64,000 nt of DNA from an uncultured Chloroflexia bacterium (GTDB taxonomy: Bacteria; Chloroflexota; Limnocylindria; Limnocylindrales; CSP1-4). The position numbers and the translations under genes are program-made. Positions 13,933 to 45,172 of the stretch are shown here, piece by piece (the stretch's first letter is position 1; each line of letters opens with the position of its first letter). The stretch spans positions 64,001 through 128,000 of the forward strand of contig CAVYIM010000003.1 of NCBI GenBank assembly GCA_963768655.1. Direction: 5' to 3'. The notes beneath the pieces were generated by a model. The model was given only the letters and a program-made list of their open reading frames with translations, did not search any database and was not told the DNA's origin.

Positions 13933-14374
13933 CCGGGTCGCGCGCGTTACCGCCGGCTTGATGTAGTAGCTCATTGGCTCACCGTGGGCCGCTGGTTGGG
14001 CACGCGCCGGGGATCATCGCGTCGACGCCGGCCCGCACAGATCGCTCCCCTGATGTGTTCTGACCAGAAAGGTACCGCCGATGACCGCCGCCGGCCCCGC
14101 AACGATGGTCCCGCCGAACATAGCCCGAGCGAATGGGCATCGAGTGGGACGGCCCTCGAAGCTCAACCGCCGTGCCAGCGACCAACGATACCCCGATCGA
14201 GCGTTGACCGGCGGGCGCGGAGTCCAGGTTGCGCCCGGCCGCCGTCAGGCCAGCTGGAAAGCACGCGGCACTGGGCGAGTGAACCACCAGGGGCGCAGGT
14301 GATCGACGTAAGGGACGCGAGAACGCCGTGCCGCGGTTTTCGAACCTGTCCGACCTGAGCTGGGTCAGCCCGAC

Positions 14375-15799: not shown

Positions 15800-16006
15800 A
15801 CGGGCGTCAGGGTCGCCGGCGCCAGTCGACCGAGTCCTACCGCCGCAGAATCTCGCCGCGAACCGCAGCAACACTCTGCGGGTCTCGAGTGTCACACGGC
15901 GTGCAAGGAATCCCAGGGGGACGACTTCGATATTCGACCAGGCGTCGAGTTCCTGACGCGGGCAAAGGCGGTGCCCGCGACCACCGAAGGAAGAGGGATC
16001 AAGACA

Positions 16007-17442: not shown

Positions 17443-19071
17443 TCAGAAGGCGATCGCTTCGTCATGCGCAGCGTCCTGGGCGGGGCCTTCGCCTTCGCCG
17501 GCGGCGCCTCGTCCTCTCCGGCTTCGAAGCGCCAGGGCCGGGACGACTGCCACGAGCGTGACGGCCGCGGCTACTAGGAAGACGCCGACCAGGATCGATG
17601 CCGCCTTGCTGGCGGCCCAGCTTTCGAGCGCCTGCGCCACCAGCCCGTCGTGCAGCGATCGATCGCGGAGGTACGCCGGAATGTACTGCTTGTACGCATC
17701 GCCCGAGCCGTAGATCTGGTTGGAGATGCGCGTGATCGTGGTCGATCCGAACGCCGTGAGCGCGGCCATGCCGACGGCCATGCCGATCATCCGGGCCACG
17801 GTCACCGTCGCGGATGCGGCCCCGAATGCGGCCCGGCCCGCGGCTTCCACCGCCGCCGTCGACCGCGGCGTGACCGTCAGCCCGAACCCTAGGCCGAAGA
17901 CCGCCGCTGATACGGCGAAGGCGTCGGTCGGCGCCGTCGGGCTCCAGGTCGACATCCACGCCAGGCCGCCGGCGCTCAGCGCCAGACCGACCAGTGTCAT
18001 CAGGCGCAGGGACAGCAGACGGGTCAGGAAACCCGAGAGCAGCGCGCCGACTGCCATGGCCCCGGCCAGCGCGCCCAGCACGACTCGCTGCTCCGCCGGA
18101 CCGCCGTAGAGCACGCGGTCGACGAACACGGCCCCGCCCACGATGGCGGTCGCCATGCCGTAGCCGGTCAGCAGCGAGATCAGCGCGGCCGAGCTGAAGA
18201 CCCGGTCGGCGAATAGCCGCGGGTCCAGGAAGGGGTCGGGCCGGCGCAGGCCGTGGACGATGGCGGCGAGGAGTGAGGCGAGGCCGAGCGCAAGAAGTCC
18301 GCCGATTGCCAGCGCGATGGGCACACCGAAGACATCGTCGCCGCTGCCGATGAGGGTGATCCCGAACAACGTTGCGGCCAGGCCAACCGAAAAGAACAGG
18401 GCTCCGAGCAGATCCAGTCGCGCGGGCACGTGGGGGGTGTCCCAGCCGGAGCTGGCCGCCCACGCGATGGCGAGCCCGCAGATGCCGAAGGGGACGTTGA
18501 CGTAGAAAACCCAGCGCCAGGCCGGCGAGACGGTGCCGACCAGAGGGCCGGAGCTGATCCCCAGCTGCGCCAGGGCGGTATCGGGATGCACGGTCTCCAG
18601 AACCGCGGCCCCGACGAAGGGCCCGGCCGCCATCCCCAGGAAGGTCAACGCGCCGATGATGCCCAGGGCTCGGGGCCGGGCCGGCCCCTCGAAGAGATGC
18701 GAGGCGGCGGCAGTGGCGACGGGGATGATCGCGCCGCCGCCCACGGCCTGGACGAGCCGGGCCGCGATCAGCTGATCCAGGTCCTGCGCGATCCCCGCCA
18801 GGAACGAGCCGATGGTGAAGACGGTGAGGGCCGCCAGGAAGAGGCGGCGAGCGCCCCACGTGTCGGTGAGGCGGCCCGCCAGCGGCATCGTGACGATGTA
18901 GACCAGCAGGTAGCCGTTGATGATCCACGACGCCTTGCGCAGGTCCGTCCAGTTGGCCACGGAGGCCAGGATCTGGGGCAGCGCAACGGCCGTGACCATC
19001 AACTCCAGGCCGGCCAGGAACACGCCGAGGCCGAGCACCGCCAGAAGCACGTAGGAGTAGCGCGGCTGCAT
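17443..19071 (-). CDS. 14-TM MFS transporter, P55/Rv1410c-like
   Basis: WIINGYLLVYIVTMPLAGRLTD, RLVQAVGGG, WRWVFYVNVP and TVARMIGMAVGMAALTAFG. Confidence 0.88.
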   Translation of the reverse strand: MQPRYSYVLLAVLGLGVFLAGLELMVTAVALPQILASVANWTDLRKASWIINGYLLVYIVTMPLAGRLTDTWGARRLFLAALTVFTIGSFLAGIAQDLDQLIAARLVQAVGGGAIIPVATAAASHLFEGPARPRALGIIGALTFLGMAAGPFVGAAVLETVHPDTALAQLGISSGPLVGTVSPAWRWVFYVNVPFGICGLAIAWAASSGWDTPHVPARLDLLGALFFSVGLAATLFGITLIGSGDDVFGVPIALAIGGLLALGLASLLAAIVHGLRRPDPFLDPRLFADRVFSSAALISLLTGYGMATAIVGGAVFVDRVLYGGPAEQRVVLGALAGAMAVGALLSGFLTRLLSLRLMTLVGLALSAGGLAWMSTWSPTAPTDAFAVSAAVFGLGFGLTVTPRSTAAVEAAGRAAFGAASATVTVARMIGMAVGMAALTAFGSTTITRISNQIYGSGDAYKQYIPAYLRDRSLHDGLVAQALESWAASKAASILVGVFLVAAAVTLVAVVPALALRSRRGRGAAGEGEGPAQDAAHDEAIAF

Positions 19072-19196
19072 AGCGGGAGTTTAGGGGAGGCCGCGGCTGA
19101 CCACGGGCTTCCCCGCCCTCTGGCCCCCGGGGTGCGCCGGGGTGCGCCGGCCGCCGCGCCATGACGGTCTCCGCAAACACGGCACAGCATCCGGGC

Positions 19197-19248
19197 TTGA
19201 CACCCGCCACCCCCGCAACCTAGCATCAACCGGCCTTTATATAAGGGC
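19197..19248 (+). promoter_or_regulatory. Sigma70 promoter and ArsR-type operator of the arsR-pgsA operon
   Basis: TTGACA-18 nt-TAGCAT. ATCAA-N6-TTTAT at 19225-19240 (one mismatch to ATCAA-N6-TTGAT). Imperfect palindrome GCCTTTATATAAGGGC at 19233-19248. Confidence 0.6.
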
Positions 19249-19345
19249 TCACTTCCGGGGCGCTGGCCGCCTCGAGAGAGGTACGCGGAGACCCGCCGAA
19301 CGGCAACCCGGACGGGCCCGCACGATAGACAAGAGGCCGCGCACC

Positions 19346-19732
19346 TTGCCCTCCCCAGCGCACATCAGGACCACCGTCGCAACGATCATCGACCAGCCGG
19401 ACGACTTGCGGGAGTTGCGCGTCTTCCACAAGGCGCTCGCCGACGTGAACCGCCTGCGCATCGTCCGAAAGCTCGCCGGGGGGCCGGCAACCGTGGGCGA
19501 GCTGATCGACACCGTCGGTCTGAGCCAGCCCCTGGTGAGCTGGCACATCTCGCGCCTCAAGGCGGCCGGCGTCGTGGAAACCAGGCGAACAGGCCGCGAG
19601 GTCTTCTGCCAGCTCCGACCCAACGTCTTCGACGAAGTGGCCGAACGGCAGCGCACACTGCTCGGCGTGCCGGTCCAGCCCGCACAACCCGCTCAACCGG
19701 CCGAGCCCCCCACGCGGGTGGAGGCGCACTGA
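19346..19732 (+). CDS. ArsR/SmtB family transcriptional regulator
   Basis: FHKALADVNRLRIV..TVGEL..LSQPLVSWHISRLKAAGVV..RRTGREV. TTG start inferred from the upstream AAGAGG. Confidence 0.9.
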   Translation: MPSPAHIRTTVATIIDQPDDLRELRVFHKALADVNRLRIVRKLAGGPATVGELIDTVGLSQPLVSWHISRLKAAGVVETRRTGREVFCQLRPNVFDEVAERQRTLLGVPVQPAQPAQPAEPPTRVEAH

Positions 19733-19735
19733 GCC

Positions 19736-20389
19736 GTGGGCGACCAGTCGTTCGTCTCGCAGAAGACGCGGGCCCGCGTTCGCGGCGCGATCACGCCCAT
19801 CGCCCTCGGCGCCGGTAGGATCGGCCTCACGCCGAACGCCCTGACGGTCATCGGCTTCCTCATCTCTGGCGTGGCCGCCGCGACCGCCGCAGCCCAGCTG
19901 TGGATCCCGGCCGCCGTCCTGGTCATCTTCGGCGGCTCGTTCGACATGCTGGACGGCGGGCTTGCACGCGCCCAGAACCGCGTGACCCGCTTCGGGGCCT
20001 TCCTCGACTCGACCCTGGACCGCTGGGGTGAGGGGGTCGTCTACATAGGCATCGTCGCCGGGGCTTCGGCCGCCGGCTTCGTCACGGGGGCGATCCTGGC
20101 CGCCGCCGCGGCCGTCTGCAGCTTCCAGGTCAGCTATACCCGGGCCAAGGCGGAGAGCCTCAAGCTGCACGGCGAGGTGGGCATCGCGCCCCGCGCCGAG
20201 CGGCTCGTCCTCCTGACCATCGGCCTCGTCGCGGCCGGCCTCGACGGGGGCGTCGTCGCGGGTGCGAGAGGCCAGCTCTGGCTGGCGCTCGGCCTCGGTA
20301 TCATCGCCGCCACCGCCAGCATCACCGCGGTCCAGCGAACCTGGCACGTCCACACTCAGCTGCGCAAAGAGGAGCAAGGAGCACAGTGA
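19736..20389 (+). CDS. pgsA: CDP-alcohol phosphatidyltransferase, phosphatidylinositol-phosphate synthase-like
   Basis: TPNALT, DMLDGGLAR..FGAFLDSTLDR, VSYTRAKAES and RAER (PIP-synthase-type motifs). Context includes patA and pimA. Confidence 0.9.
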   Translation: MGDQSFVSQKTRARVRGAITPIALGAGRIGLTPNALTVIGFLISGVAAATAAAQLWIPAAVLVIFGGSFDMLDGGLARAQNRVTRFGAFLDSTLDRWGEGVVYIGIVAGASAAGFVTGAILAAAAAVCSFQVSYTRAKAESLKLHGEVGIAPRAERLVLLTIGLVAAGLDGGVVAGARGQLWLALGLGIIAATASITAVQRTWHVHTQLRKEEQGAQ

Positions 20390-20435
20390 GCGTCAACACC
20401 AGCGGCGACGCCGCGACCGCCAGGGTCGAGGCCAG

Positions 20436-21683
20436 GTGACACAGGAACGTCTGGCCGTCGGCGCTGAGGTCGGCGACGGCGTCGGTCCTGCCGGGGCCGC
20501 CACCTCCACCCGTGCCGGCGACACCTCCGATCTTCCCACCGGGGCGGGGTCGGTTCGATCTCGCCCCGCGCAGCCCGGCAAGGCCGGGCCCCGACCAGAG
20601 AACGGCGCGGCCACGAAGAAGTTCGAGGCGCCCCACCGCCTGGAGAAGGAGACTTTCCTCACCCACGTCGCGGGCGTCACGCTGCTGAGCTTCTGGCGGA
20701 CCTCGTCCTGGGTCATCGGCCACCTCCCCGCCGGCCCGACGTATCGCGTCGGCGGCTGGGTGGCGATGATCGGCTACGCAGCGAGTCCCCAGCGCCGTCG
20801 CTGGCTGCGAGCCAACTTCGGGCACGTGCTCGGCGTGTCGCCCAAGGACAAGGCCGCCGGCCGCCTCGCTCGCGCCGCCTACCGCAACTACGCCCGCTAC
20901 GTCATGGAACTCATGCGCCTGCCGTGGCTCAAGCCCGACAAGGTCGATCTAATCCTCGAGGTCAAGAGCCTCGAGAAGTTCCTGGAGATCTACCGCGCAT
21001 CCAAGGGCGTGGTCCTGGTGGCCGCCCATCTCGGCAACAACGAGGCGGCCGCGGCCGGCTTCGCCAAGCAGGGCCTGGAGATCAACGTCGTCGGCGACGA
21101 CAGCTCGTACCGCGAGCTGTACGAGCTGTTCGAGCGCCAGCGGGAAAGCTGGGGCGTCAAGATGATCTCGTGGCGCAACCTGCGCGGCGTCTACGGCGCC
21201 CTGCGGCGCCACGAAGGCCTCGTCCTGCTGGTCGACTGGGGCTACCGAGAGGACGGCATCCCCGTCAAGATGTTCGGCGCCTGGACGACGCTCCCGGCCG
21301 GCCCCGCGATCCTGGCGGCCAAGCACGGCTCGACCATCGTGCCTTTCTCCATCAATCGACTACCGAACGGCACGTTCCGGGCGGCGGCGGACGATCCGAT
21401 CCACGTCGCATCGAACTCGCCGGCCGACCTGGCCCGCGCGACGCAGGAAATCGCGACCGCCCTGGAGGGCCACATCGCCCCCGCACCGGAGCAGTGGTAC
21501 ATCTTCAAGCCGATCTGGCCGGAGACCGCCGCAGAGGCGGCCGCTCTCGAGGCGCGGCATGCCGCGGCCATGGCGGCCGAAGCGACGGAGAACGGCACTC
21601 GAGGCGGCGGCGCCGGTCCCGCCGAGGACGCCGACGCTTCCGAAGGCAGGGCCGGCAAGCCACGGGGGCACAAGGGTAGATGA
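20436..21683 (+). CDS. PIM/lipid A-type lysophospholipid acyltransferase (PatA-like) 1
   Basis: YARYVMELMRLP, AHLGNNE, LPAGPAILA, APEQWYIFKPIW. GTG start inferred. Confidence 0.85.
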   Translation: MTQERLAVGAEVGDGVGPAGAATSTRAGDTSDLPTGAGSVRSRPAQPGKAGPRPENGAATKKFEAPHRLEKETFLTHVAGVTLLSFWRTSSWVIGHLPAGPTYRVGGWVAMIGYAASPQRRRWLRANFGHVLGVSPKDKAAGRLARAAYRNYARYVMELMRLPWLKPDKVDLILEVKSLEKFLEIYRASKGVVLVAAHLGNNEAAAAGFAKQGLEINVVGDDSSYRELYELFERQRESWGVKMISWRNLRGVYGALRRHEGLVLLVDWGYREDGIPVKMFGAWTTLPAGPAILAAKHGSTIVPFSINRLPNGTFRAAADDPIHVASNSPADLARATQEIATALEGHIAPAPEQWYIFKPIWPETAAEAAALEARHAAAMAAEATENGTRGGGAGPAEDADASEGRAGKPRGHKGR

Positions 21684-22777
21684 ACATCGAGGCGCCCCCG
21701 TCGACCGCGCCTGCGCCCGCCCACCCGGCCGATCCCGCGCCAGAGACCGCCACGCCGGGCTCGCCGGCCGGCTCCGGAGCCGCCTCCCGGTCGGGCCCGG
21801 CCACGCACCGCGGCCTGCGCCGGCGCGTGGCCGACCGGGCGGTCGCCACCCTCGTGATCGGCGCCATGGAGCTGATTCGGCGCATGCCGGACGCCCCGCT
21901 GTGGTGGCTCGGCAACGCTGCGGGCAACATCGAGTACCGGGCCGCCCGCAGCCGCCGCGACGAAGCGCGCCGCAACCTGCGCCGCGTGGCGGAGTGGATG
22001 GCCGCGCACGGCGTGGGGGACGAGAAGTACCATCGCGCGGCCACGGACCCACGCGCCCTCGAGGCGATCGTCCGATCGGCCTTCCGCCATCATGCCCACT
22101 ACTACATCGAGCTGGCGCGGGCGCCCCGCTTCGACGTCCACTACCTGGAGAAGCGGCTCGTCATCGAGACGCCGGACGAAGTCGAAGCGGCCCTCGCCGA
22201 GCGCAAGGCGCTGATTCTCGTGGGTCTCCATTTCGGCACGATCGAGCTGCCCGGGTTCCTCGCCCTTCATCGCCTGGGCCAGGTCGTCGCCCCGATGGAA
22301 TCGCTTCGCAATGAGCGCATCCAGGCCTACATGAAGAGGACTCGGGGCGTCATCGGCGTCCGCATCCTGACCATCGAAGAGGCAGGCCCCGAGCTGCTGG
22401 CGGTCCTTCGCCGCAACGAGCCGATCGGGATCATCGCCGACCGCGATCTGACCGGCAGCGGGCTCGCGGTCGAGCTCTTTGGCGCGAAGACGAAGATTCC
22501 GGCAGGACCGGCCCTGCTGGCCACCGAGACGGGCGCGCCGGCCTACGTTTCGGGCGTGTGGCGGGTGGGCCCGGGACGCTATCGTGGCGTCCTCTGGCCG
22601 GTTCCGACACCCGGGGGGTTGAGCCGGCGGGAGCGGAGCCGGTCGATGGTTCTGGAAGAGGCGCGGCTGTTCGAGCGCGTGATAGCCGCCGCGCCAGAGC
22701 AGTGGCTGGCAGTCTTTCACCCCATCTGGCCCGATCTGCGGCGGGCGCGAGAGACCGACACGGGAGAAGCCCGGTGA
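21680..22777 (+). CDS. PatA-like acyltransferase 2
   Basis: LHFGTIE, IADRDLTGSGLAVELFG, PAGPALLA, PEQWLAVFHPIW. ATGA coupling to the upstream gene. Confidence 0.87.
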   Translation: MNIEAPPSTAPAPAHPADPAPETATPGSPAGSGAASRSGPATHRGLRRRVADRAVATLVIGAMELIRRMPDAPLWWLGNAAGNIEYRAARSRRDEARRNLRRVAEWMAAHGVGDEKYHRAATDPRALEAIVRSAFRHHAHYYIELARAPRFDVHYLEKRLVIETPDEVEAALAERKALILVGLHFGTIELPGFLALHRLGQVVAPMESLRNERIQAYMKRTRGVIGVRILTIEEAGPELLAVLRRNEPIGIIADRDLTGSGLAVELFGAKTKIPAGPALLATETGAPAYVSGVWRVGPGRYRGVLWPVPTPGGLSRRERSRSMVLEEARLFERVIAAAPEQWLAVFHPIWPDLRRARETDTGEAR

Positions 22778-24965: not shown

Positions 24966-25027
24966 GCCGGCCGGCCTCCCGAGTCGGCTCCGGCCTCCTG
25001 GGAGACTCCCATGAGTCCCCGGCCGCC

Positions 25028-28000: not shown

Positions 28001-31000
28001 CGAGCTGATCTCGCCCGGCGTGAGGGTCCCGAGGTCGATCGGCTGTTCGACTGCGGAGCCGGCCGCCGCGTTCAGCTCCGTCTCGACCTGCGACGGATCC
28101 TCACCAACCGTGGAGGCGATCGTCTGGGCTTCCGCGGACACGTCCATGGACTGGCTGGCCGTCGGCGTCCGAACGACCGATGCCGTGTTGATCGTCGAGG
28201 TCACGGCGAGAGTCCGCACGTCCATGATGCCGACGCCGTCGCCGTACGCGACCACCACCTCCGGATCATCCGACCTGATGGCGATGCCCGGTAGCTGGCT
28301 GGCGTCGATGAGCGTCTGGAGGGCGCTGATCTGGTCGTCCGAGAGAATGCCCAGGTCGATGACGGTGTCCAGCCCGGAGTTCGCCGGCGAGCTCAACGCC
28401 GCCTCGACATCTTCCGCCGTCATGCCCACCGCCGAGGCGATGGCCTTGGCTTCCGCCGACAGGCTGGCCGCCGGGATCGAGGTCGGGGTCCGCACCACCG
28501 CGGTCGTGGTTGAGCTGAGCGGGGCGAAATCGGCGGCGCCATCCAGCGTTTCGCGGGCCAGGATCTTGCCCGTGCCATCGGTCGATACGATCGTTCCGGT
28601 GGCGTCGACGGCCAGGATCAGCGGCGGCGAGTCGGCGTAGATCTTGACGATCGGAAAGCCCGTCTGGGTCGAGAGCTCGGTCGGCGGTGTGGGCGCGCTC
28701 GCCGCGCCGAGGCGGACATCGTCGAGCTGGAACATGTCGATCCGCCAGATCCGGCCGTCCGATGTCCCGACGTACAGGTCGCCCGTGTCGGCGGCGATGG
28801 ACAACGCGGATGCTCCGGGGATCTGGTATGTCGCCTCGACCGCTCGCGTCTGGAGGTCGTAGGCGATCACCTCCGTGCCCGTGGCAACGTAGAGGCGATC
28901 GCCCAGGCGCGCGTCGGGGTTGGAGCGGGGGTCGGTCGGGGAGCCCGAGTCGTCAGGCAGGATCCTCGGCTCGACGACCGCGTCTTTCACCGGCACGTCG
29001 AGGTTGCTCGTGGCCGTGACCTTGTCGTCTGAGAAGAGGACCAGTCCGCCGGCGATGGCGTACTTGGCCAGCATCGGGTGAGTCCACTCGTAGATGTCGT
29101 GGCGGATGCCATACCGCCAGTCCTGCAGGAACTCAGTGGCGGTGCGGGCGTGGTAGACCTCGTCGAAGTACATCTGGTCCGGCTCGTCGAGGCGATAGAC
29201 ACGCATCGAGAGAATCACGATGACCAGGGCCACGACGACCCAGAGGTCGAGCTTGTCGAAGCGGCCCTTGGGCTCGGTCGCAAGAGAAGCCGAGCGATCC
29301 GGCATCGTCGACGAGCGGCTCAGCCATCGCCAGGCCGACATCACGAAGCCAGGCACGAATTCGGGCTCCTCGCCCGCTGGCTCGTCGTAGCCCTCGTAGT
29401 CGTCGTAGACGGCCATCTCGCCGCCGGAGGCCCCTTCGCCGGAGGGCGCGCCCGAAGCCGGCGTCCCGCCGCCCGCTGGGGCCTCGGCGGCCCATTTCAT
29501 TTCGGGCTCAGGGCGAGAGTCAGGCCGAGAGTCGGGCCGGAACTGGGCCCGGCGGGCCGCTCCTTCCGACGCCCACCCCGGCCCCGCGAGGGCCTGCGGC
29601 CCCATGAGCGGCCCTGGCCAAAGGCGCTGCGGCCCCGGCTCGCCGCCCGCCCTTGCCAATTCCCAGGCCAGCATCCGCACGGCCCGGGTGCGCATCTGCG
29701 TCAGGGCCCACAAGAGGGCGAGGCCGGTGACGACGCCCGAAAGAGCGATCGGCCAGATCAGGCCGGCCCACTCCGCGGACTTGAGGAAGTTGCCCCAGTC
29801 GCCGAGCAACCCCGAGATCGGGCCGGCCACCCCAGGAGCGCCCTGCACGCCGGGGATGCCCTGATACTCGACCAGGACGGCCAGCAGGTTGGCGGCGTTG
29901 ACCACCGCCAGCGCGGCATATGCGACGCTCCAGCGCCACGACACCGCCAGAAGGATCGCTCCAACCGCGAAGAACGGGAACAGGTAGCGCTCATGGGCTC
30001 GAGTCGGGACCACGAAGAAGGCAATGGCGAGGATCGCGAGCGCGACCGCGATCGAGAGGCGGTCGTCGCGCCAGGCCGCCCAGGCGCTCACCCCGACCAT
30101 GATGGCCACCAGGAAGCCGTCGCCGACGATCCAGGCGGGAAGACCGCCGATGGGCTGGCCGGCGAGGAGGAACAGGATCGCGACCACCGCGACCGTGCAA
30201 CCGATCGCCACCGCACGCAGCTCGGACGGCAGCGAGAATGGGGGCTTGCCGGGTGCCGACGCCGTCCAGGGCTCCGATTCGAGTGGAGCGGCTGCAGGCG
30301 CGGCGCCGGCGCCCCCCTCCGACGGCCCGGGAGCCTCTGCCCGATCCGTCGCCCCGGCGTGGGTCCAGGCGACGGCGGCGACGGCGACCAGCACGAGGAT
30401 AGCGACCGCCATCACGACAAGGACGCGGGCCGAGAACGGCCCGACGCTGAAGTACGGCTGGGCGGCGCCGTTGTCGTACACGAGGGCGTCGTGGATCCAG
30501 CCCAGGCTCTGGTCCATGGCGCCGCCGGTTCCGTAGCCCACCAGCGCCCAGGGGTTGTAGGCGTTGAGCGTCAGGTACGGGTACTCGCCGAAAGTGTCGA
30601 TGATGTGGTTGGCGATCGATCCGAAGGCCATCGCCGCGAAGCCCATGACGGTGGCCGCAGCGGCGGCGGCCGCGGCGAGTTCGCGGTTCGCGGCTGAGAC
30701 CAGCTCGGACCGCATGACCAGCAGATAGACGCCCAGGCCGGCGATCAGTCCCGCGGGTAACGTCAGAAGGCCTTGAGGCGTGGCCAGCCGCCCGGCAAGT
30801 CCGACGAAGTCGAGGCCCGTGAATGGCAGGCAGACCAGGGCGCCGGCGGCCAATCCCGACGCGATGGACGTCAGCACTCGCCCGGGATCGGGCCGGCCCT
30901 CGCGCGGCGCCAGCGAGCGCCGGAGGATGACGAAGCCGACGAGAACACCGAGGATGCCGAGCTGGATCTTCGTCAGCGCCGCAACCACGGCCAGGGCCGC

Positions 31001-31555
31001 GGCGAGCTCACGGCGATCCCGCAGGAGCTCGCGCAGGCCCAGGAGCATGAAGAGCGAGCCGACCACATCCGCCTGGCCCCAGATCGCGCTGTTGAACCAG
31101 GTGATGGGGTTGAACAGCACGATCGCGGCCGCGCAGACGGCCCGCCGTCGAGACGCACCCAGCTCCTGCGTCATGACGAAGACGACCCAGGCAAGAGCCA
31201 GGTCCGTGAAGATCGGGATCAGCTTGATCGATTGGTCATCGATGCCGCCGAACGGCGAGAAGATCAGGCCCTGGACCCACAGGAAGATCAGGTAGACGGG
31301 TGGGTAGTCCAGAAAGCCGGCTCTGTCGTAGAACCCGATGGGTCCCTGCGCTACGAGCTGGCTGCTCCAACCCCGAAACGAACCGAGGTCGGAAGGGAAA
31401 CCCGACCCCGGAACCAAAACGTATGCGATGATGAGTCGGAGGGCCAGACCCAGGAGGAGAAGGACGACGATGGCGAGAACAGAGGTATGGACACCACTCG
31501 TTCCCGCCGGCGCGTTCCCCCGCGGGCTGGCCTCTCGCGTGCTCGGGCCTGCCAA
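25028..31555 (-). CDS. Giant double GT-C protein: ALG6/PIG-M-like mannosyltransferase fused to a PMT (GT39)-like protein mannosyltransferase with an extracytoplasmic insertion
   Basis: N-terminal domain: DYPP, NSAIWGQAD, LNAYNPW, HERY. C-terminal domain: MYFDEVYHAR, EWTHPMLAK, WR, QSRIAMND, ALASKW, H.ASSPWWAWPLDLKPVW, GNP and FQYHF. Exact start uncertain. Confidence 0.88.
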   Translation of the reverse strand: MAGPSTREASPRGNAPAGTSGVHTSVLAIVVLLLLGLALRLIIAYVLVPGSGFPSDLGSFRGWSSQLVAQGPIGFYDRAGFLDYPPVYLIFLWVQGLIFSPFGGIDDQSIKLIPIFTDLALAWVVFVMTQELGASRRRAVCAAAIVLFNPITWFNSAIWGQADVVGSLFMLLGLRELLRDRRELAAALAVVAALTKIQLGILGVLVGFVILRRSLAPREGRPDPGRVLTSIASGLAAGALVCLPFTGLDFVGLAGRLATPQGLLTLPAGLIAGLGVYLLVMRSELVSAANRELAAAAAAAATVMGFAAMAFGSIANHIIDTFGEYPYLTLNAYNPWALVGYGTGGAMDQSLGWIHDALVYDNGAAQPYFSVGPFSARVLVVMAVAILVLVAVAAVAWTHAGATDRAEAPGPSEGGAGAAPAAAPLESEPWTASAPGKPPFSLPSELRAVAIGCTVAVVAILFLLAGQPIGGLPAWIVGDGFLVAIMVGVSAWAAWRDDRLSIAVALAILAIAFFVVPTRAHERYLFPFFAVGAILLAVSWRWSVAYAALAVVNAANLLAVLVEYQGIPGVQGAPGVAGPISGLLGDWGNFLKSAEWAGLIWPIALSGVVTGLALLWALTQMRTRAVRMLAWELARAGGEPGPQRLWPGPLMGPQALAGPGWASEGAARRAQFRPDSRPDSRPEPEMKWAAEAPAGGGTPASGAPSGEGASGGEMAVYDDYEGYDEPAGEEPEFVPGFVMSAWRWLSRSSTMPDRSASLATEPKGRFDKLDLWVVVALVIVILSMRVYRLDEPDQMYFDEVYHARTATEFLQDWRYGIRHDIYEWTHPMLAKYAIAGGLVLFSDDKVTATSNLDVPVKDAVVEPRILPDDSGSPTDPRSNPDARLGDRLYVATGTEVIAYDLQTRAVEATYQIPGASALSIAADTGDLYVGTSDGRIWRIDMFQLDDVRLGAASAPTPPTELSTQTGFPIVKIYADSPPLILAVDATGTIVSTDGTGKILARETLDGAADFAPLSSTTTAVVRTPTSIPAASLSAEAKAIASAVGMTAEDVEAALSSPANSGLDTVIDLGILSDDQISALQTLIDASQLPGIAIRSDDPEVVVAYGDGVGIMDVRTLAVTSTINTASVVRTPTASQSMDVSAEAQTIASTVGEDPSQVETELNAAAGSAVEQPIDLGTLTPGEISSLQQFIADGQLPGIAIRDHPATSIAIDSTMRNATTQEWYVAVGSSILLIDVNDSGDATISADPDQELSVMPGPVTKVVFDSATQITQALGQTPDGSGWTVYAIESNGNAVFSDAKLPFDPVAIGADSTPDQPNTDRQDLLAVASNGDMAQVDIGQFAFAWRIVGVLFGALMAVCLYLLARLLFRRRSVGVLVALFSCVDGMFFAQSRIAMNDTYVGGFLLLAYLIFAYIWLGAKNDRRSWLTFWIGMPLVGLVLGLALASKWVALYAIASIGILIFIRSALGRLLTIMGLVAGTGILGWNAIAEMQTLPGTGNVAALLLTLGLGLAVLVGGVWYAMVRARTTPDRVLFVAVGALISLPIFYWAMRYYPSPDQNGGPDYTFFLIMLMATAVAAAVNAYHPIAWTKQEFWFAVVAPLGIGVVAGLGWLIVGILDFVPLQGILFYVASRGIAGGLVLAPVIAFGFWLVGKKGFGPLAVPPSPDDPASFAEPPAPAPEGWLRLGSGFGLPAAWMVASLLILPLVVYVALYIPWAVPWHQETADSGPLPILMCWNTVTTDANTYCTNAWPPGHTGQTLMQLTEQMYAYHNDLRAQHAASSPWWAWPLDLKPVWFESVSYGPDIGSWIHDGGNPVLWWLAIPGMAFVCWQAFKRRSLGLALIAMAFLWQWLSWARIDRAAFQYHFYTALPFFLLGLAYFLAELWHGPSRRTWLLARAAAVGAAMVPAVLWIAKYPLCTLARVDVTNYFGNTACGSVTGTLTVEARIFLIALVLLGALAVLALTLIRLERRSPEQNDEDRSWIIQLVFPVAVAGALILWLGANGPRDVIFQAALPPDLLALVMAVLGVCLGILAITARDSRRLVLGICIFAVVAFALLYPDLSALPMPNLLLNVYDAILPTWFYGFQFADNLQASQTVQLIGGAALIVSVAALGVALMAGYVAWGQRVVAGYRRHQRLLAGPGAEDGGAGHSAGEPADGAAAGAAAEPADAPDEAPTS
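27953..28498 (-). repeat. Two diverged 75-aa internal repeats in the giant GT (28274-28498 and 27953-28177)
   Basis: Both read VVRTPT..SAEA..IAS.VG...IDLG.L...IS.LQ..I...QLPGIAIR. Confidence 0.85.
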
Positions 31556-31584
31556 CCGAAACGGCCTCCTGGACGAGCGCTGAG

Positions 31585-33435
31585 GTGGAGGGGAGTATAA
31601 CCCAGGCCACGCCTGGGGACGGCGGATCGGCCACTCCCGCCGCCGAGCCGGCGGGCGGAGCGCCCGGCGGCGCCTCCGACGCCCGGGACGAGAAGGTGCG
31701 CCCTGCGCCCTTCCTCTGGGGCATCGCCCTCGTCGTCCTGTGCCTGATCGTGTTCGTCTTCACGAACCCGAACCGCGAGAACCCGTACATCCACTTCGTC
31801 TGGCAGGCTCAGGCCTGGCTCGACGGGCAGACCTCGATCGCGACCCACGTTCAGCCGTCGGCGACCTCGCCGGGCAATTCCTGGTATCAGGACTTCCAGC
31901 CGATCCTCGACGCCAGCGGCAACGACACCAACCGCGGCAACCTTCCATTCCCGCCGCTCCCGGCACTGGTCCTGCTGCCGTTCGTCGCCGTGTGGCACCT
32001 GTTCACCAACGAGCAGCTCCTAGCCACGATCTTCGCCGCGCTGGACGTTGGGATTGCCTATTGGGTCCTGGGCTACCTGCCGATCCGACAGGAGGTGCGC
32101 CGTCTGACCGTGTTGTTCCTCGGCCTGGGCACGGTCCTCTGGTACGCGGCCGCCATCGGCAGCACCTGGTTCTGGGCCCACATCGTCGCCATCGGCTGCC
32201 TGCTGGCGGCGATCGGATTCGCGTTATCGGCCGACCGCGGCGCCGCCGAGCCGCGGCCCCTCGCAGATGAGATCGCCGCGGCTCGGCCTGCGGCGTGGCC
32301 CGGCCGCTGGCGATCGGCGGCGGCAGTCGTCGTCCTGGGCGTGCTCGGCGAGCTGCTATTCCAGCTGGCCGGGGCCGGCACGGCAACGGCCACGGTCGCC
32401 GGCGTGGGCGTGCTCCTGGCGATCGGGGCCGCCATCCTGGCCCTCGCCGTGTCCGGCGGGCGCGGTGTTCTGGTGCCGCTCGTCGCCGTCGTCGCCGTCG
32501 TCGGCGGCGTACCGGCGGCCCTCGTCCTCGGAGCCGGGAACCCGCAGGCGCTGGCGGCGTTGGACGCCGCGGTCCTGGTGCTGGTCGTCGTGCTGTTGAT
32601 CGTGGCCCGCGTTCGACCCGAGTCGACGGAGCGGGCGGTGACCGCCTTCTGGGATGCCCTGGAGAGGCCGGATACTCGCCAGCTGGCCGCCGGGCTGCTG
32701 TTCGGCCTCGCCTGCACCGCGCGGCTGACGATCGTCTTCGGCTTCCCGTTCCTGCTCCTGGTGGGCGGCGGCGGCACCTGGTTGCGGCGCGGCCTGCTGG
32801 CCGGTGCCGGAGCGGCGGTCCCGCTCGTGGCGCTGCTCGTCTACACGTACGCGCAGACGGGGCACCTGTTCAACCCCGTATACGACTACCTGTATCAGCA
32901 AGAGCTCGGGTACACGTTTCTCAACTACAACGCGAACTGGTCGATCGAGGACCTGCGCTACGTGCCGCAGAACCTGATGATCATGCTGTTCAACACGCCC
33001 CTGATCATGCCCAACCAGTATCCCTGGTCGTCAGATCTGCTCTGCCAGGGCGGGGCCGCGCGCGGGTTGTTCGACAAGTCCTGCCCGATCGCGGTCCCGA
33101 ACTGGGTCGGCAACAGCGTCATCCTGACCAGTCCGGCCTACCTGCTCGCCCCGCTGGCCTTCATCCCGGCCCTGTGGCGCAAGCTCGACCGCGTGACGGT
33201 GGGCGCCGCCATCGCCGTCGCGGCGATTGCGTTCGTCAACCTCATGCACTTCAGCCAGGGCTGGGTTCAGTTCGGCTACCGTTTCAGCAACGACTTCGCG
33301 CCGTTCGCCATCCTGCTGGTCGCGCTCGGTGCGAACCGCCTCGGCCGCTACTGGTGGGTGCTCCTGCCGTTCGTAGCCGCTTCGATCGCCATCAACCTGT
33401 GGGGCACCGTCTGGGGAGTGATGCTTGGCTGGTGA
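31585..33435 (+). CDS. Multi-pass membrane protein, probable GT-C glycosyltransferase
   Basis: FVWQAQAWLDGQ, FPPLPAL, GSTWFWAH and GWVQFGYRFSNDF, with many TM helices. Start uncertain. Confidence 0.75.
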   Translation: MEGSITQATPGDGGSATPAAEPAGGAPGGASDARDEKVRPAPFLWGIALVVLCLIVFVFTNPNRENPYIHFVWQAQAWLDGQTSIATHVQPSATSPGNSWYQDFQPILDASGNDTNRGNLPFPPLPALVLLPFVAVWHLFTNEQLLATIFAALDVGIAYWVLGYLPIRQEVRRLTVLFLGLGTVLWYAAAIGSTWFWAHIVAIGCLLAAIGFALSADRGAAEPRPLADEIAAARPAAWPGRWRSAAAVVVLGVLGELLFQLAGAGTATATVAGVGVLLAIGAAILALAVSGGRGVLVPLVAVVAVVGGVPAALVLGAGNPQALAALDAAVLVLVVVLLIVARVRPESTERAVTAFWDALERPDTRQLAAGLLFGLACTARLTIVFGFPFLLLVGGGGTWLRRGLLAGAGAAVPLVALLVYTYAQTGHLFNPVYDYLYQQELGYTFLNYNANWSIEDLRYVPQNLMIMLFNTPLIMPNQYPWSSDLLCQGGAARGLFDKSCPIAVPNWVGNSVILTSPAYLLAPLAFIPALWRKLDRVTVGAAIAVAAIAFVNLMHFSQGWVQFGYRFSNDFAPFAILLVALGANRLGRYWWVLLPFVAASIAINLWGTVWGVMLGW

Positions 33436-35296
33436 AGATCCGCATCGAATCGATGGCTCGCCGGAGGTGACTCAACCCTCCAGCCGAACCGAGACGATCC
33501 GGCTTCGCGTCGAGCGGGCCGGCCTAAATCGCGATCTGGCGGCGGCCGCTCTGGCGCCGCTCGTCGCGGCCGCGGCGACGCTTGCGCTCGTCATTCCGAC
33601 TCTCGCCCCGGGCGTCCTCTCCTGGGACACCGCCGAGTTCCAGGCCGTTGCGCCGGTGCTCGGCACCGCCCATCCCACCGGCTACCCGGCTTACGTGATC
33701 CTGGGCTTCCTCGCCTCGCACCTGCTGCCCTTCGGCGACCCGGCCTATCGGATGAACCTGCTCCAGGCCATCCTGGCGGCCGGAGCCGTGGCCGGCACCG
33801 TGGCCGTGGTCCAGTACCTGACGGGGATGCGCTGGGTGGCCCTGGCCACCGGGCTCCTGCTCCTGATCATGCCCACCTGGTCGCCCACCTCGGTCAGCTT
33901 CCCGGACGGCACCCAGTTCACGACGAGTCCGTTCTTCTGGCGCCTCTCCACTCACGCCGACCCGCACATGTTCCATCTCGCGCTGGTGGCGCTGATCTTC
34001 CTGCTGCTGCTCGTCTGGGAGAGACGGCGGACTGACCGCTACCCCGAGAAGCGCCGCCGATCGGACCGCTGGCTGGTGGCCGCGGCGTTCGTCTACGGCG
34101 TGGCCGTCGCCAACCATTCTCTGGCCCTGCTGCTGCCGCCGGCGATAGGCCTGTTCGTTCTCACCGTGGCGCCGCGGATCGTCCTCGAGTGGCGCCTCAT
34201 CCTCAAGTGCGCGGCCGTCCTGGGCGTGACCGTAGTCGTGCTGTTCCTGGAGCTGCCGATCCGCGCGGCCATGAACGCGCCACTGGTTTACGGCCATCCG
34301 GACACGTGGAGCGGCTTCCAGTACGTCGTCCTGGCCGAGCAGTTCCGAGGCAGCCTCTCGGATCCGCTGGGCGATCTCGGGGTCAAGTACGCGGCGGTGA
34401 TGAATCTCCTCTCGAGCTGGCTGGGGCCGCTTGCATTCCTGGCCGCGATCGGATTGGGGACGAGCCTGGTGCGACGGCCACGCTACGTCCTGCTGAGCGG
34501 ACTCGCGGCGGTGGCAACCGCGGGTTTCTCGGCCGCGTACGCGAACGCGGACATCGAGCGGTACTACCTGGTGCCTCTCTTCGTGGCCTTCACTTTCGTG
34601 GGCCTGGGGCTGGCCGACGCCTTGTCCCTGGGCGTGTGGCTGATCGGCTCGGCCGGGCAGAGGGTCGTGGGGCGCGCGGCTCCGGCAGCCGTGCCAGAGG
34701 AAGGCCCCTCCGCCGCCTCCGACGTCGCACCGCCGGACGCCTCGGCCGCACCGGAGGCCGCAACCGAGGTTGCCGTCGGCGGGCCTACCCGAAACAATGA
34801 CCGCCGGAACGGGCAGGCATTGCTGCTGGTCGAGATCGTCGCGGCCATCGTCCTCGTCGCGGCCGGCATGACAATAGTCCCCGCGCGCCAGATGGTGCCC
34901 AGCAACAACCAGGGCGCAGTGAGTGAAACCGACCAGACCGGCCCCGGAATCTGGATGCGAGCCGTGCTCGCCCCGCCCGATCAGGGCGGTCTCCCGGCGA
35001 ACTCGGTGATCGTGAGCTGGTGGAGCGACTCGACGACCCTCTGGTATGGCCAGAAGGTCGAAGGCCTGCGCCCGGACATCTTCATAGTCGATGACCGCAC
35101 TCGCCTGGACGACAATCTCGGCGACGTGTGGGATGTCGTCGACCGTTATCTCGGCCAGCGACCGGTCTTCCTCGATCGTCTGGAAGGTGGCGTCGACGGG
35201 ATGGACGCCTTGAGCCAGATGTACAACTTGCAGGAATTCCCGCTGACCAACGGGGGCTCGATCGCCGAGGTCATCAGCAAGAAGGTCACGCCGTGA
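33425..35296 (+). CDS. DUF2723 / TMEM260-like protein O-mannosyltransferase
   Basis: TLAPGVLSWDTAEFQAVAPVLGTAHPTGYPAY and PAYRMNLL are the DUF2723 signature. Confidence 0.88.
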   Translation: MAGEDPHRIDGSPEVTQPSSRTETIRLRVERAGLNRDLAAAALAPLVAAAATLALVIPTLAPGVLSWDTAEFQAVAPVLGTAHPTGYPAYVILGFLASHLLPFGDPAYRMNLLQAILAAGAVAGTVAVVQYLTGMRWVALATGLLLLIMPTWSPTSVSFPDGTQFTTSPFFWRLSTHADPHMFHLALVALIFLLLLVWERRRTDRYPEKRRRSDRWLVAAAFVYGVAVANHSLALLLPPAIGLFVLTVAPRIVLEWRLILKCAAVLGVTVVVLFLELPIRAAMNAPLVYGHPDTWSGFQYVVLAEQFRGSLSDPLGDLGVKYAAVMNLLSSWLGPLAFLAAIGLGTSLVRRPRYVLLSGLAAVATAGFSAAYANADIERYYLVPLFVAFTFVGLGLADALSLGVWLIGSAGQRVVGRAAPAAVPEEGPSAASDVAPPDASAAPEAATEVAVGGPTRNNDRRNGQALLLVEIVAAIVLVAAGMTIVPARQMVPSNNQGAVSETDQTGPGIWMRAVLAPPDQGGLPANSVIVSWWSDSTTLWYGQKVEGLRPDIFIVDDRTRLDDNLGDVWDVVDRYLGQRPVFLDRLEGGVDGMDALSQMYNLQEFPLTNGGSIAEVISKKVTP

Positions 35297-36168
35297 GCGC
35301 AGCCGAAGAAACGCACAAGTCCGGCCCGACGGCCCCCGCCCCGGCCCCCGCCCCGGCCCCGGCCCCCGCCCCCGCCCCCGCCCCGGCCCCGGCCCCGGCC
35401 CCCGCCCCCGCCCCCGCCCCGAAGGTCGCCGAGCTGTCGCTCTTCTTCCCCGCCCACAACGAGGAGGCGAACCTCGAGGCCCTCGTCGACGAGGCGCTGG
35501 CGACGCTGCCCTCACTGGCGACCAGGTTCGAGGTGATCGCGGTCGACGACGGCTCGAAGGACCGGACGCCTGCCATCGCCGACGACCTGGCGAAGCGCCA
35601 TCCGGACGTCTTCCGCGTGGTCCACCACCCGATCAACCTCGGCTACGGGGCCGCGCTTCGATCCGGCTTCCGAGCAGCCCGCTACGACCTGATCGCCTTC
35701 ATCGACGGCGACCGCCAGTTCAAAGTCATCGACGTCGGCCGCTTGACGGCTCGGATAGTCGCGTCCGATTCTCCGGATGTCGTCGTGGGCTTCCGTCTCC
35801 ACCGCGCCGACCCACCGATCCGGCGCTGGTACGCCCGCGTCTACCGCTTCTCGAACCGCGTCTTCTTCGGTGTCCGCGTCCACGACATCGACTGCGCCTG
35901 CAAGCTCTTCAAACGCGCGGCCCTGGAGCCCATCAGAGTGGCCTCGGGCGGCGCCTTCTTCACCGCCGAACTCCTGATCAAGCTGCGCTTCGAAGGCCGC
36001 CGCGTCGCCGAGGTAGGCGTGCCGCACTATCCGCGGACGGCCGGCTCGCCCACCGGCGCGAAGCCGAGAGTGGTCTTGCGGGCAGTCCGCGACTTCTGGT
36101 CGCTGCGCATCCGCCTATGGCTGGGCCGGTCGAAGGGCATGCGCCGCGGCGAGGCGATGCTCGGCTAG
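35293..36168 (+). CDS. GT2 polyprenol-phosphate sugar (mannose/glucose) synthase, DPM1/Ppm1-like
   Basis: FFPAHNEE, VDDGSKD, NLGYGAAL.SG, DGDRQF, DIDCACKL and HYPR. GTGA overlap with the upstream gene. Confidence 0.9.
   Translation: MSAAEETHKSGPTAPAPAPAPAPAPAPAPAPAPAPAPAPAPAPKVAELSLFFPAHNEEANLEALVDEALATLPSLATRFEVIAVDDGSKDRTPAIADDLAKRHPDVFRVVHHPINLGYGAALRSGFRAARYDLIAFIDGDRQFKVIDVGRLTARIVASDSPDVVVGFRLHRADPPIRRWYARVYRFSNRVFFGVRVHDIDCACKLFKRAALEPIRVASGGAFFTAELLIKLRFEGRRVAEVGVPHYPRTAGSPTGAKPRVVLRAVRDFWSLRIRLWLGRSKGMRRGEAMLG
35332..35421 (+). repeat. 6-bp tandem repeat (GCCCCS)15 encoding (Ala-Pro)15
   Basis: 90 nt of GCC CCC/CCG units near the GT2 N-terminus. Confidence 0.95.
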
Positions 36169-45135: not shown

Positions 45136-45172
45136 TGTTGCCCGCCGGGCTGTGAGGCCGGACGATTGGCGC

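Follow-up and report, generated by a model that had tools for sequence, protein, structure and literature searches.

A conserved Limnocylindria locus with a predicted phosphatidylinositol mannoside operon and a giant fused glycosyltransferase resembling a protein O-mannosyltransferase complex

Phosphatidylinositol mannosides (PIMs) are described in the literature as unique to mycobacteria and related Corynebacterineae, or as found in Actinobacteria (10.64898/2026.07.15.738315). The mycobacterial core of their synthesis lies in a single operon, pgsA1-patA-pimA (Rv2612c-Rv2609c), which brings together a phosphatidylinositol phosphate (PIP) synthase, a PatA-type acyltransferase and PimA. The same preprint proposes, from AlphaFold3 modelling and pull-down in M. 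smegmatis, a mycobacterial complex around the protein O-mannosyltransferase Pmt (Pmt/Rv1002c, GT87-like Rv0051, beta-propeller Rv3212 and DivIVA-like Rv1209). In this proposal a GT87-family protein devoid of catalytic residues forms a pair with Pmt, in the way that Pmt2 does with Pmt1; a periplasmic eight-bladed beta-propeller sits over the active site of Pmt in the manner of MIR domains, and the fourth component is a small protein of the DivIVA family. The preprint also mentions the fusion of some Paenibacillus GT39 enzymes to a GT87 enzyme. Here we analysed a stretch of 64,000 nucleotides (nt) from an uncultured Chloroflexia bacterium (GenBank assembly GCA_963768655.1, contig CAVYIM010000003.1, positions 64,001 to 128,000 of the forward strand), referred to as the window, in which positions 17443-36168 hold genes resembling both systems. 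With moderate confidence, we read this region as two envelope-biogenesis units, a cytoplasmic operon leading from phosphatidylinositol (PI) to acylated PIMs and an extracytoplasmic set of GT-C glycosyltransferases with its own donor synthase, in which a giant protein of 2175 residues would act as a Pmt holoenzyme.

The open reading frame (ORF) listing, third-position GC and Pfam and NCBIfam scans returned eleven intact genes in this region, which are the genes named by a first-pass annotation of the same DNA and lie on the strands it had assigned. The minus strand carries an MFS transporter and the 2175-residue ORF; the plus strand carries the other nine genes, in the order ArsR, CDP-alcohol phosphatidyltransferase (PgsA), two Lip_A_acyltrans proteins (PatA1 and PatA2), PHP and GT4, followed past the giant gene by an unnamed membrane protein (ORF9), a TMEM260-like protein and a GT2 enzyme. 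Stop and start codons overlap by 4 nt at four junctions, as ATGA at 21680 (PatA1/PatA2) and 23781 (PHP/GT4) and as GTGA at 22774 (PatA2/PHP) and 35293 (TMEM260-like/GT2), and the ORF9 and TMEM260-like genes overlap by 11 nt; the plus-strand genes therefore form two translationally coupled operons. The giant gene separates them, being convergent with the first and divergent from the second. The ArsR and PgsA genes are spaced by 3 nt, and the PgsA/PatA1 junction is a 128-nt overlap if PatA1 starts at 20262 or a 46-nt gap if it starts at 20436, and in neither case a 4-nt overlap. The earlier gene coordinates were corrected at the starts of PHP (22774) and GT2 (35293), and probably need correction at ORF9 (31696) and at ArsR, which is probably shorter. 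The G+C content is about 69% in the window and 0.68-0.72 across the region without a compositional break, and the region is therefore no compositional island. The window sits at the replication origin, with dnaA, dnaN, recF, yidC and jag all found. Rfam and tRNA scans of the region found nothing, and promoter and terminator scans stayed at chance level.

The relatives of the giant protein, together with the class placement, identify the host as a member of Limnocylindria, a class of Chloroflexota, in agreement with the non-actinobacterial character suspected at first pass. Among 8000 candidates scored, 869 relatives of the giant protein were found at E<=1e-3; the 120 listed relatives are mostly 2000-2200 residues long and, where a source name is given, come from Candidatus Limnocylindrales or Chloroflexi. 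A scan of one genome per species with the giant protein matched at least 619 stretches, 609 of which were confirmed. The best 80 of these (at least 619) stretches collapse to 64 loci, 62 of them with a Chloroflexota-type title, and synteny was assessed by tblastn of 20 window proteins against these 64 loci fetched from public genomes. The recurrent order comprises dnaN, recF, a 760-residue protein without a known function, a nuclease-domain gene and the GT2, TMEM260-like and ORF9 genes on one strand, the giant gene on the opposite strand and, past it, GT4, PHP, PatA2, PatA1, PgsA and ArsR; it is retained down to 35% identity of the giant protein. Presence was counted in loci with enough flank, leaving aside five loci that carry PMT-only paralogues (L025, L028, L041, L050 and L063). 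GT4 was present in 44 of 45 loci, the single miss (L021) being a 4-kb contig, PHP in 41/41, PatA2 in 39/39, PgsA and ArsR each in 25/27, ORF9 in 44/48, the TMEM260-like gene in 40/42 and GT2 in 40/40. This arrangement is far beyond chance, and the cluster, on whose conservation the first proposal depended, is conserved class-wide.

The last gene of the first operon (23781-24965, plus strand) encodes a GT4 enzyme of 394 residues (Glycos_transf_1, 146 bits), which aligned over its full length (residues 1-364) to the solved PimA structures (PDB 4n9w, 2gej) with 206 bits, against 80 bits for the next PDB family and 57-80 bits for MshA, BshA and PimB. In this alignment the GGV and ESFG...E (E-x7-E) nucleotide-sugar motifs are in register. 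GT4 is the most conserved gene of the region (median identity 79%, minimum 72%; the median of dnaN is 76%), just as PimA is the most constrained gene of the mycobacterial operon. We assign the enzyme as the PimA orthologue, a predicted PI alpha-mannosyltransferase. The gene assignment is not new, since the automatic JGI annotation already gives this name to many metagenome homologues with 85-95% identity.

The PIP synthase (19736-20389, plus strand, 217 residues) is a PgsA1-type CDP-alcohol phosphatidyltransferase that matched CDP-OH_P_transf with 61 bits against a Pfam cut-off of 22 and found its best PDB matches in mycobacterial PgsA1 (6h53, 83 bits). Its motif D70xxDGxxARx8GxxxDxxxD95 is complete when compared with the PIP-synthase motif DxxDGxxAR...GxxxDxxxD given in PMC9246714. 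Of 31 related loci that include pgsA as well as patA1, 26 have a gene for a myo-inositol-1-phosphate synthase inserted between the two (Pfam match 121 bits; copies 80-93% identical among loci; for example 19176-20345 in L007), so that most relatives differ from mycobacteria in holding this enzyme inside the operon. An inositol-phosphate synthase and a PIP synthase with the same motif also occur in the inositol-lipid cluster of Bacteroides, which includes a dedicated PIP phosphatase but neither PimA nor PatA (PMC9246714).

The two acyltransferase genes, PatA1 (20262-21683, alternative start 20436) and PatA2 (21680-22777), both on the plus strand, matched Lip_A_acyltrans with 124 and 104 bits respectively. 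For both proteins the top NCBIfam model was PRK07920, a PIM acyltransferase (135 and 126 bits against a cut-off of 209), and the PDB sequence matches were PatA structures only. When aligned to PatA, PatA1 keeps the catalytic His and has Asp at the position of the Glu, these two positions being what we take to be the catalytic residues of PatA (His with an acidic partner). In PatA2, too, His and Asp are retained, although its identity to PatA1 is only 27%, which makes the duplication an ancient one. A pair of distinct PatA genes was found in 38 of the 39 loci that could be judged (L046 has one), two further loci being cut off. At the position occupied elsewhere by the inositol-phosphate synthase (20389-20700), PatA1 of the window has a low-complexity N-terminal extension instead. 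PMC12041525 describes the enzyme adding an extra acyl chain to inositol and the PIM flippase as both unknown, and the second PatA paralogue is a candidate for the former enzyme.

Between PatA2 and GT4, and overlapping each by 4 nt, lies the gene of a PHP-family metal-dependent phosphoesterase (22774-23784, plus strand, 336 residues; PHP_C 40 bits), in place of the LemA/NUDIX protein Rv2609c of the mycobacterial operon. The CehA/McbA domain model gave 61 bits against a cut-off of 80. The metal ligands (HxH, DHE, E86, H94, H128 and DxH192) are conserved in 16 orthologues, together with a basic, helix-like C-terminal stretch. The PIP-to-PI phosphatase of Bacteroides is PgpA-like (PMC9246714), whereas this candidate belongs to the PHP family; for mycobacteria the PIP phosphatase is called "as-yet unidentified" and "long-sought", with EphE as a proposed candidate (10.64898/2026.07.15.738315). 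Judged by its class and its place in the operon, the PHP enzyme is a candidate for this phosphatase in the present lineage.

At the head of the operon is an ArsR/SmtB-family regulator (19142-19732, plus strand; HTH_5 46 bits, NF033788 73 bits against a cut-off of 55) with its helix-turn-helix at residues 96-165. Similarity in distant loci starts only at residue 61-70, and the protein is probably shorter than its ORF, with the true start downstream, for example at TTG 19346. A promoter-like site inside the ORF (TTGACA-18-TAGCAT, 19197-19226) is at chance level. The operon, arsR-pgsA-patA1-patA2-PHP-pimA, thus mirrors the mycobacterial one in joining a PIP synthase, a PatA-type acyltransferase and PimA, and differs from it in its phylum, its two PatA paralogues and its regulator.

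[quoted passage not shown] There PgsA would combine CDP-diacylglycerol and inositol phosphate into PIP, the PHP phosphoesterase may strip the phosphate to leave PI, PimA would transfer mannose from GDP-mannose to PI giving PIM1, and the two diverged PatA paralogues would add acyl chains, possibly at two different positions. It seems very unlikely that the operon makes another kind of inositol glycolipid, one whose sugar is not mannose or whose anchor is not diacylglycerol. Such a product would accord with the NCBIfam ranking of PgsA, in which the archaeal AIP synthase (NF040950, 145 bits, cut-off 180) comes ahead of the bacterial PIP synthase (NF045883, 131 bits, cut-off 170), both below their cut-offs, and with the GT4 enzyme, which matched no NCBIfam PimA equivalog and had EpsE and MSMEG_0565-type GT4 families on top. 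However, the full-length PimA match far exceeds those to MshA, BshA and PimB, PatA is the sole structural family matched by both acyltransferases, and the composition of the operon mirrors pgsA-patA-pimA. The assignment from PI to acylated PIMs is strong for an analysis that had only sequences to work with, and the PIM core recognised at first pass is borne out by the PimA alignment, the PatA-only structural matches and the complete PIP-synthase motif.

The giant gene encodes, on the minus strand, a chain whose layout was established from hydropathy and alignments. Residues 1-621 (29693-31555) form a GT87-like GT-C domain with about 12 transmembrane (TM) segments, and residues 622-763 (29267-29692) a low-complexity linker, poorly conserved and without a TM segment, which from the topology is presumably cytoplasmic. 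One TM segment follows at 764-791, then a soluble stretch at 792-1336 and TM-rich regions at 1337-1717 and 1863-2122. In terms of the PMT family, residues 764-830 (29066-29266) correspond to TM1 and the start of loop 1 with the DE motif (F797 D798 E799), residues 831-1336 (27548-29065) to a beta-propeller-like insert in extracytoplasmic loop 1, and residues 1337-2175 (25028-27547) to the PMT (GT39) membrane core followed by a C-terminal region of 4 TM segments.

The N-terminal third, scanned alone, matched GT87 (PF09594) with 26.8 bits against a cut-off of 25, a match not listed in the full-length scan. PF09594 is carried by 16 of the 120 listed shorter homologues, some of which are named "GT87 family", "DUF2029" or "Gpi18-like" in their source. 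Residues D56, F60, Y88, Q161, D163 and K196 of this N-domain are invariant in 49/49 sequences, D56 lying just after TM1. According to PMC12041525, the functional residues of PimE, a GT87 polyprenol-phosphate-mannose-dependent alpha-1,2-mannosyltransferase, are D58, Y62, Y92, Q163 and K195, with D58 as the catalytic Asp at the tip of the first periplasmic loop. The invariant positions of the N-domain are near these in number, a numerical proximity only, with no alignment behind it. The N-domain thus resembles PimE in its marginal Pfam GT87 match, its approximately 12 TM segments, the conserved Asp shortly after TM1 and the conserved Lys near 196, and differs from it in being fused to a PMT and in matching no PDB chain at the sequence level.

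The C-terminal part matched PMT with 43.5 bits against a cut-off of 22.7, at profile positions 82-199, and all 22 homologues examined matched PMT, 21 of them also PMT_4TMC (E<=0.01). The soluble stretch opens with the invariant F-D-E-V-Y-H of PMT loop 1, and F797 D798 E799 is invariant both in 24 sequences and in a set of 42. The PMT profile is split, with positions 2-61 found before the insert in 11 of 42 orthologues and positions 82-199 after it. A domain of about 500 residues is therefore inserted in the catalytic loop, so that, unlike in known PMTs, loop 1 is not contiguous. The insert was found in 41/41 mapped orthologues, in which the mapped region (window residues 765-1345, including TM1 and the DE stretch) measures 417-584 residues. 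Its Pfam matches are all sub-threshold and nearly all to beta-propellers (PQQ_2 in 12/42, best E 2.9e-5; Beta-prop_EML_2 in 11/42), and internal repeats are weak, with hhalign probabilities of 34-76% between blade-like pieces and about 7 blade-like units by eye. Within the insert of the window protein, residues 1026-1234 (27854-28480) contain a tandem duplication of a helical unit of about 105 residues (hhalign 98.9% between copies), of which the consensus of 24 homologues shows one copy.

The fusion of the GT87-like and PMT parts is itself an observation, being retained in 24 aligned full-length homologues. Since the GT87-like, GT39 and propeller-like parts occur in one chain and match parts of the complex proposed for mycobacteria, the best available reading of the giant protein is a predicted single-chain protein O-mannosyltransferase holoenzyme, not "PimE plus PMT", best read as corresponding to three of the four components of that complex. 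The likeness lies in a GT39 enzyme with DE, a GT87-type membrane partner and a propeller-type domain beside the catalytic loop. The differences are that here all three share one 2175-residue chain with the propeller-like part inside loop 1, that no DivIVA-like component was seen, and that a conserved Asp is kept in loop 1 of the GT87-like domain, in contrast to the mycobacterial partner, described as having no catalytic residues. The first-pass view of this gene as a double GT-C, a lipomannan enzyme plus a PMT, gives way to the fused Pmt holoenzyme, which explains the protein better. The GT39 core with its DE motif would catalyse the transfer, the propeller-like domain could cap the active site and select acceptors, and the N-terminal domain would play the Pmt2/Rv0051-like partner role. 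As the N-domain keeps its loop-1 Asp, the GT87-like half may also be active, for example in extending the first mannose.

Other described systems share single traits with this protein. In yeast Pmt1-Pmt2 the beta-trefoil MIR domain is found in loop 5. The yeast pair is similar in combining paired GT-C modules with an extra extracytoplasmic domain near the active site, and differs in that its partner is a second GT39 module, here replaced by a GT87-like one, and in that the extra domain is here propeller-like and lies in loop 1. The Paenibacillus fusion likewise has GT87 and GT39 in one protein. No published description of a triple GT87-propeller-GT39 fusion was found, and GT39, GT87, beta-propeller and O-mannosyltransferase occurred together only in 10.64898/2026.07.15.738315.

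Putative short GT87-PMT fusions without the insert were discarded, because P0358, a candidate for such a form, proved to be an incomplete protein built like the others, with an insert that is merely shorter. The PMT-only paralogues, of 1425-1589 residues, keep the propeller-like insert, and a small N-terminal region of 3-4 TM segments replaces the GT87-like domain. They adjoin an ECF sigma factor gene in 4/5 loci. Within a subclade they share 50-74% identity with the PMT half of the fused genes, suggesting that the duplication came later; the observation is placed at L063 8438-9019, L050 8526-9086, L025 2631-3188 and L041 14188-14685.

Upstream of the giant gene (31556-31605, minus strand), DNA alignment of 25 sequences revealed an element of about 45 bp that is more conserved than the surrounding coding sequence and is kept even where the identity between the giant proteins of the loci is no more than 35-40%. 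Its parts are a -10-like hexamer, the 15-mer CCACCTCAGCGCTCG and AGGAGG 9 nt before the TTG start. The window has one copy against 0 expected, L001 has its copy at 9950-9993, and an exact 14-mer was found in 28/64 loci, once each and always upstream of the giant gene. The element may be a promoter plus operator; a leader RNA was rejected, the consensus structure being absent (-0.45 kcal/mol, 3 pairs). The first codons of the longer form of ORF9 are the reverse strand of this element, which makes them look conserved, and ORF9 therefore probably starts at GTG 31696 and not at 31585.

The second operon opens with this ORF9 (31585-33435, plus strand; a 616-residue ORF of an unnamed family), a polytopic membrane protein for which no Pfam family was found at E<=5. 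Its family counts 2432 representatives at E<=1e-3, 1331 at <=1e-10 and 304 at <=1e-30. Faint links to GT87 appeared in 1/41 orthologues (E 5e-4) and 1/19 relatives (28.7 bits), and 11/18 relatives matched NF047440 (LA_3751/LA_3752 putative glycosyltransferase) far below the cut-off. The topology and the invariant Q102-D103 of the first loop are compatible with a putative GT-C enzyme, and no family model establishes its first-pass label as the fourth GT-C. A 1298-residue protein (P0392) considered as a fusion of ORF9 with the TMEM260-like protein was rejected, since the sequence between its two partial matches is rich in Arg and Ser and looks out of frame; most likely the ORF was mis-called and spans neighbouring genes.

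The TMEM260-like (DUF2723) GT-C protein (33425-35296, plus strand) matched PF11028 with 100 bits against a cut-off of 24.2, and D68, H83, D556 and D557 are invariant in 31 orthologues. D68 and H83 share their 15-residue spacing with D52 and H67 of human TMEM260, a match by spacing and not by alignment; D52 and H67 are stated to be essential (10.64898/2026.03.17.711096). As in human TMEM260, a protein O-mannosyltransferase (PMC10214176), a soluble domain follows the membrane core, and it is this C-terminal domain that bears the invariant D556-D557. The protein ends at residue 623 and matched no TPR family at E<=5, so that its acceptor recognition must differ from that of human TMEM260, which is characterised by a luminal Rossmann-like domain and a TPR domain that binds the acceptor. 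It differs further in being bacterial and in its gene context, since the gene overlaps the unnamed GT-C-like gene upstream and the donor-synthase gene downstream.

The last gene encodes a GT2 enzyme of polyprenol-phosphate-sugar synthase type (35293-36168, plus strand, 291 residues; Glycos_transf_2 105 bits). Its best PDB matches are ArnC, an archaeal DPM synthase and GtrB, its DDGS (D86) and D138-G-D140 motifs are invariant in 25 orthologues, and the hydropathy scan gave no TM segment. The best NCBIfam model was PpgS (59 bits against a cut-off of 370), with no equivalog reached. The donor-synthase-type GT2 and the PMT-type and TMEM260-type GT-C enzymes expected from the first pass are thus all present. 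A tandem repeat of GCCCCC (14.8 copies, 35332-35420) right after the coupled start encodes an Ala-Pro tail, (AP)n, at the GT2 N-terminus; GT2 is read in frame -1 with respect to the TMEM260-like gene, and orthologues have a shorter, variable tail. In actinobacteria a soluble GT2, Ppm1, is likewise encoded directly downstream of, and coupled to, a membrane protein gene (PMC3460810, PMC5882110), and the soluble Ppm1 depends on the membrane protein encoded just upstream (PMC3460810). Here the upstream partner is a TMEM260-like GT-C protein and not an Lnt-type acyltransferase.

On the outer face of the membrane, where the second unit would act, the GT-C enzymes would consume a polyprenol-phosphate-sugar donor. 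The soluble GT2 would provide it as polyprenol-phosphate-hexose, most likely with mannose, and by analogy may dock on its upstream partner as Ppm1 does on Ppm2. ORF9 and the TMEM260-like protein may form a second GT-C pair beside the giant protein.

Several results weigh against the assignments proposed for the two units. Concerning the giant protein, the GT87 match is marginal, as 4 of 22 homologues match at E<=0.01 and two of these exceed 25 bits; the N-domain, searched against the PDB as a single sequence or as a 49-sequence profile, found no chain at E<=10. In the window protein PMT_4TMC reached 28.2 bits against a cut-off of 32.4, and the NCBIfam Pmt model (NF058602) 24.9 bits against a cut-off of 800. 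Profile comparison of the GT-C modules by hhalign gave probabilities of 6%, 24% and 29%, those of 6% and 24% involving ORF9; the loop-1 acidic motifs fall in register, and these probabilities are too weak to claim homology. The mycobacterial Pmt complex used as reference comes from a preprint and is partly a predicted model. In the lipid operon as well as in the giant protein the NCBIfam equivalog cut-offs were all missed (PIP synthase, PatA, Pmt), and the proteins of the lipid operon are diverged family members, not close orthologues. The inositol-phosphate synthase is not at the pgsA-patA1 position in the window and its closest relatives (the loci without it there are L001, L002, L003, L010 and L060), and no copy lies anywhere in the 64-kb window; in the host genome it must be located elsewhere or be lost. 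No PimB-like enzyme was found, the second GT4 protein of the window (44008-45249) having no PDB sequence match, and no PimB-, LpqW-, MptA- or MptB-type marker was seen in the window. The sugar specificity of the GT2 and GT-C enzymes is not readable from sequence. Finally, the synteny that joins both units is equally common to dnaN, recF and the nuclease gene, and operon adjacency alone is therefore no evidence of one pathway.

This last point bears on whether the whole region forms one system, as had first been proposed. In such a single pathway the acylated PIMs would be flipped by the MFS pump and elongated by the GT87-like domain, acting as PimE does, and by ORF9 to a lipomannan-like lipoglycan, with the PMT and TMEM260-like enzymes glycosylating proteins in parallel. 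PimE and other characterised GT87 enzymes act on mannolipids anchored by PI (PMC12041525), the N-domain has the residues numerically near those of PimE mentioned above, without an alignment, and wherever a non-paralogue locus has enough flank the two units lie side by side, as the GT4 count exemplifies. Yet the pairing of GT87 with GT39 can be accounted for specifically by a Pmt partner, dnaN and recF are adjacent at least as strongly, none of the PimB-, LpqW-, MptA- or MptB-type markers was seen in the window, ORF9 lacks a family assignment and the pump is only loosely linked. We therefore regard the single pathway as rather unlikely. That the lipid operon and the GT-C genes are functionally linked is a putative connection, synteny being all that ties them, and any hand-over of PIMs to the GT-C enzymes is a point we infer, as are the substrates, the identity of the sugar and the role of the PHP enzyme.

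The pump itself (17443-19071, minus strand, 542 residues, about 14 TM segments; MFS_1 116 bits) is a DHA2-type transporter, and its best NCBIfam model was DHA2 efflux_EmrB with 192 bits against a cut-off of 230. Its description as "P55-like" finds no specific counterpart, only generic DHA2 efflux models being matched. It lies beyond ArsR in 15 of 24 non-paralogue loci with room for it, and in 17 loci the distance from ArsR varies between 145 and 1787 nt, so that the transporter is only loosely linked to the locus. Its candidacy as the PIM flippase was dropped, its support being limited to occasional adjacency.

The opposite possibility, that the two units are unrelated neighbours in an origin-proximal block, with the operon serving only bulk PI and PIM synthesis and the GT-C enzymes glycosylating another acceptor, for instance an S-layer or a polysaccharide of the wall, and perhaps transferring a sugar that is not mannose, appears quite unlikely. 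It agrees with a synteny that runs unchanged through dnaN, recF (35/37), the 760-residue protein and the nuclease gene (BFN, 40/40), with the separate transcription of the units, convergent and divergent, and with a GT2 closest to ArnC and PpgS-type enzymes and far below every cut-off. On the other hand, the locus has a PMT with an invariant DE and a TMEM260-like protein with the D/H pair, families whose characterised members mannosylate proteins, and the fusion of GT87-like and PMT parts argues for one coupled function. The two-unit reading, with the giant protein as a predicted Pmt holoenzyme, is the one we retain. Its fullest version, in which Limnocylindria make acylated PIMs, the PHP enzyme is the PIP phosphatase, the second PatA adds the extra chain and the giant protein is a one-chain Pmt machine whose propeller acts as a gatekeeper and whose active GT87 half lengthens the mannose put on by the PMT half, is as a whole unlikely.

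Other features of the window deserve mention. The 760-residue protein (36802-39084, minus strand) has one TM segment and no family, its sole match being a weak PP2C-type one (E 1.7e-4), and it is as syntenic as the glycosyltransferase genes (38/39 loci). Between dnaN and dnaA, an unusual site for glycan genes, the minus strand (42491-45249) encodes a MOP-family flippase (PRK10459, 160 bits, below the cut-off) and the GT4-like protein at 44008-45249, which has no NCBIfam or PDB match. Two Kelch-repeat proteins and a weak sortase-domain protein, possibly secreted, are encoded in the window (5151-6368, 14828-15799 and 15971-17386); the second Kelch-repeat protein has 147-bp tandem repeats at 16621-17324, and the sortase-domain protein is directly upstream of the MFS gene. 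A metallo-beta-lactamase-fold protein (13138-13974, minus strand) matched best, among NCBIfam models, that of a quinoprotein-relay zinc metallohydrolase, with 110 bits where the cut-off is 280, and gave weaker matches to class B beta-lactamase models, all below cut-off. A tmRNA gene (Rfam, 128 bits) lies beside smpB (58850-59221 and 59880-60458).

The literature search on PIMs, lipomannan or O-mannosylation combined with Chloroflexota names returned nothing relevant, and no paper was found behind the earlier statement that inositol mannosides are reported from Chloroflexota. The Limnocylindria genomics paper PMC13212565 contains none of six envelope terms. Only PI is reported, as a major lipid of one cultured Ktedonobacteria species (PMC12453558). 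Novelty lies in the conservation of the locus across the class and in the triple fusion, neither of which was found in print.

A complete and strongly constrained PIM-core operon in another phylum would widen the known range of PIMs and supply an outgroup for tracing where the pathway came from, and the operon offers testable candidates for steps still open in mycobacteria, namely the PIP phosphatase and the second acyltransferase. The gene fusion in the giant protein is independent evidence that its parts work together and bears on the mycobacterial Pmt complex as proposed; if the reading is true, it would be Rosetta-stone-type evidence for that complex, and the giant protein would provide a single-gene object for structural work. 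Limnocylindria are an abundant uncultured class of Chloroflexota from soil and freshwater. In these bacteria the products of a conserved gene neighbourhood appear to synthesise inositol lipids that carry mannose, which until now were associated with bacteria of the tuberculosis type, and a giant enzyme encoded within it probably attaches mannose to secreted proteins.

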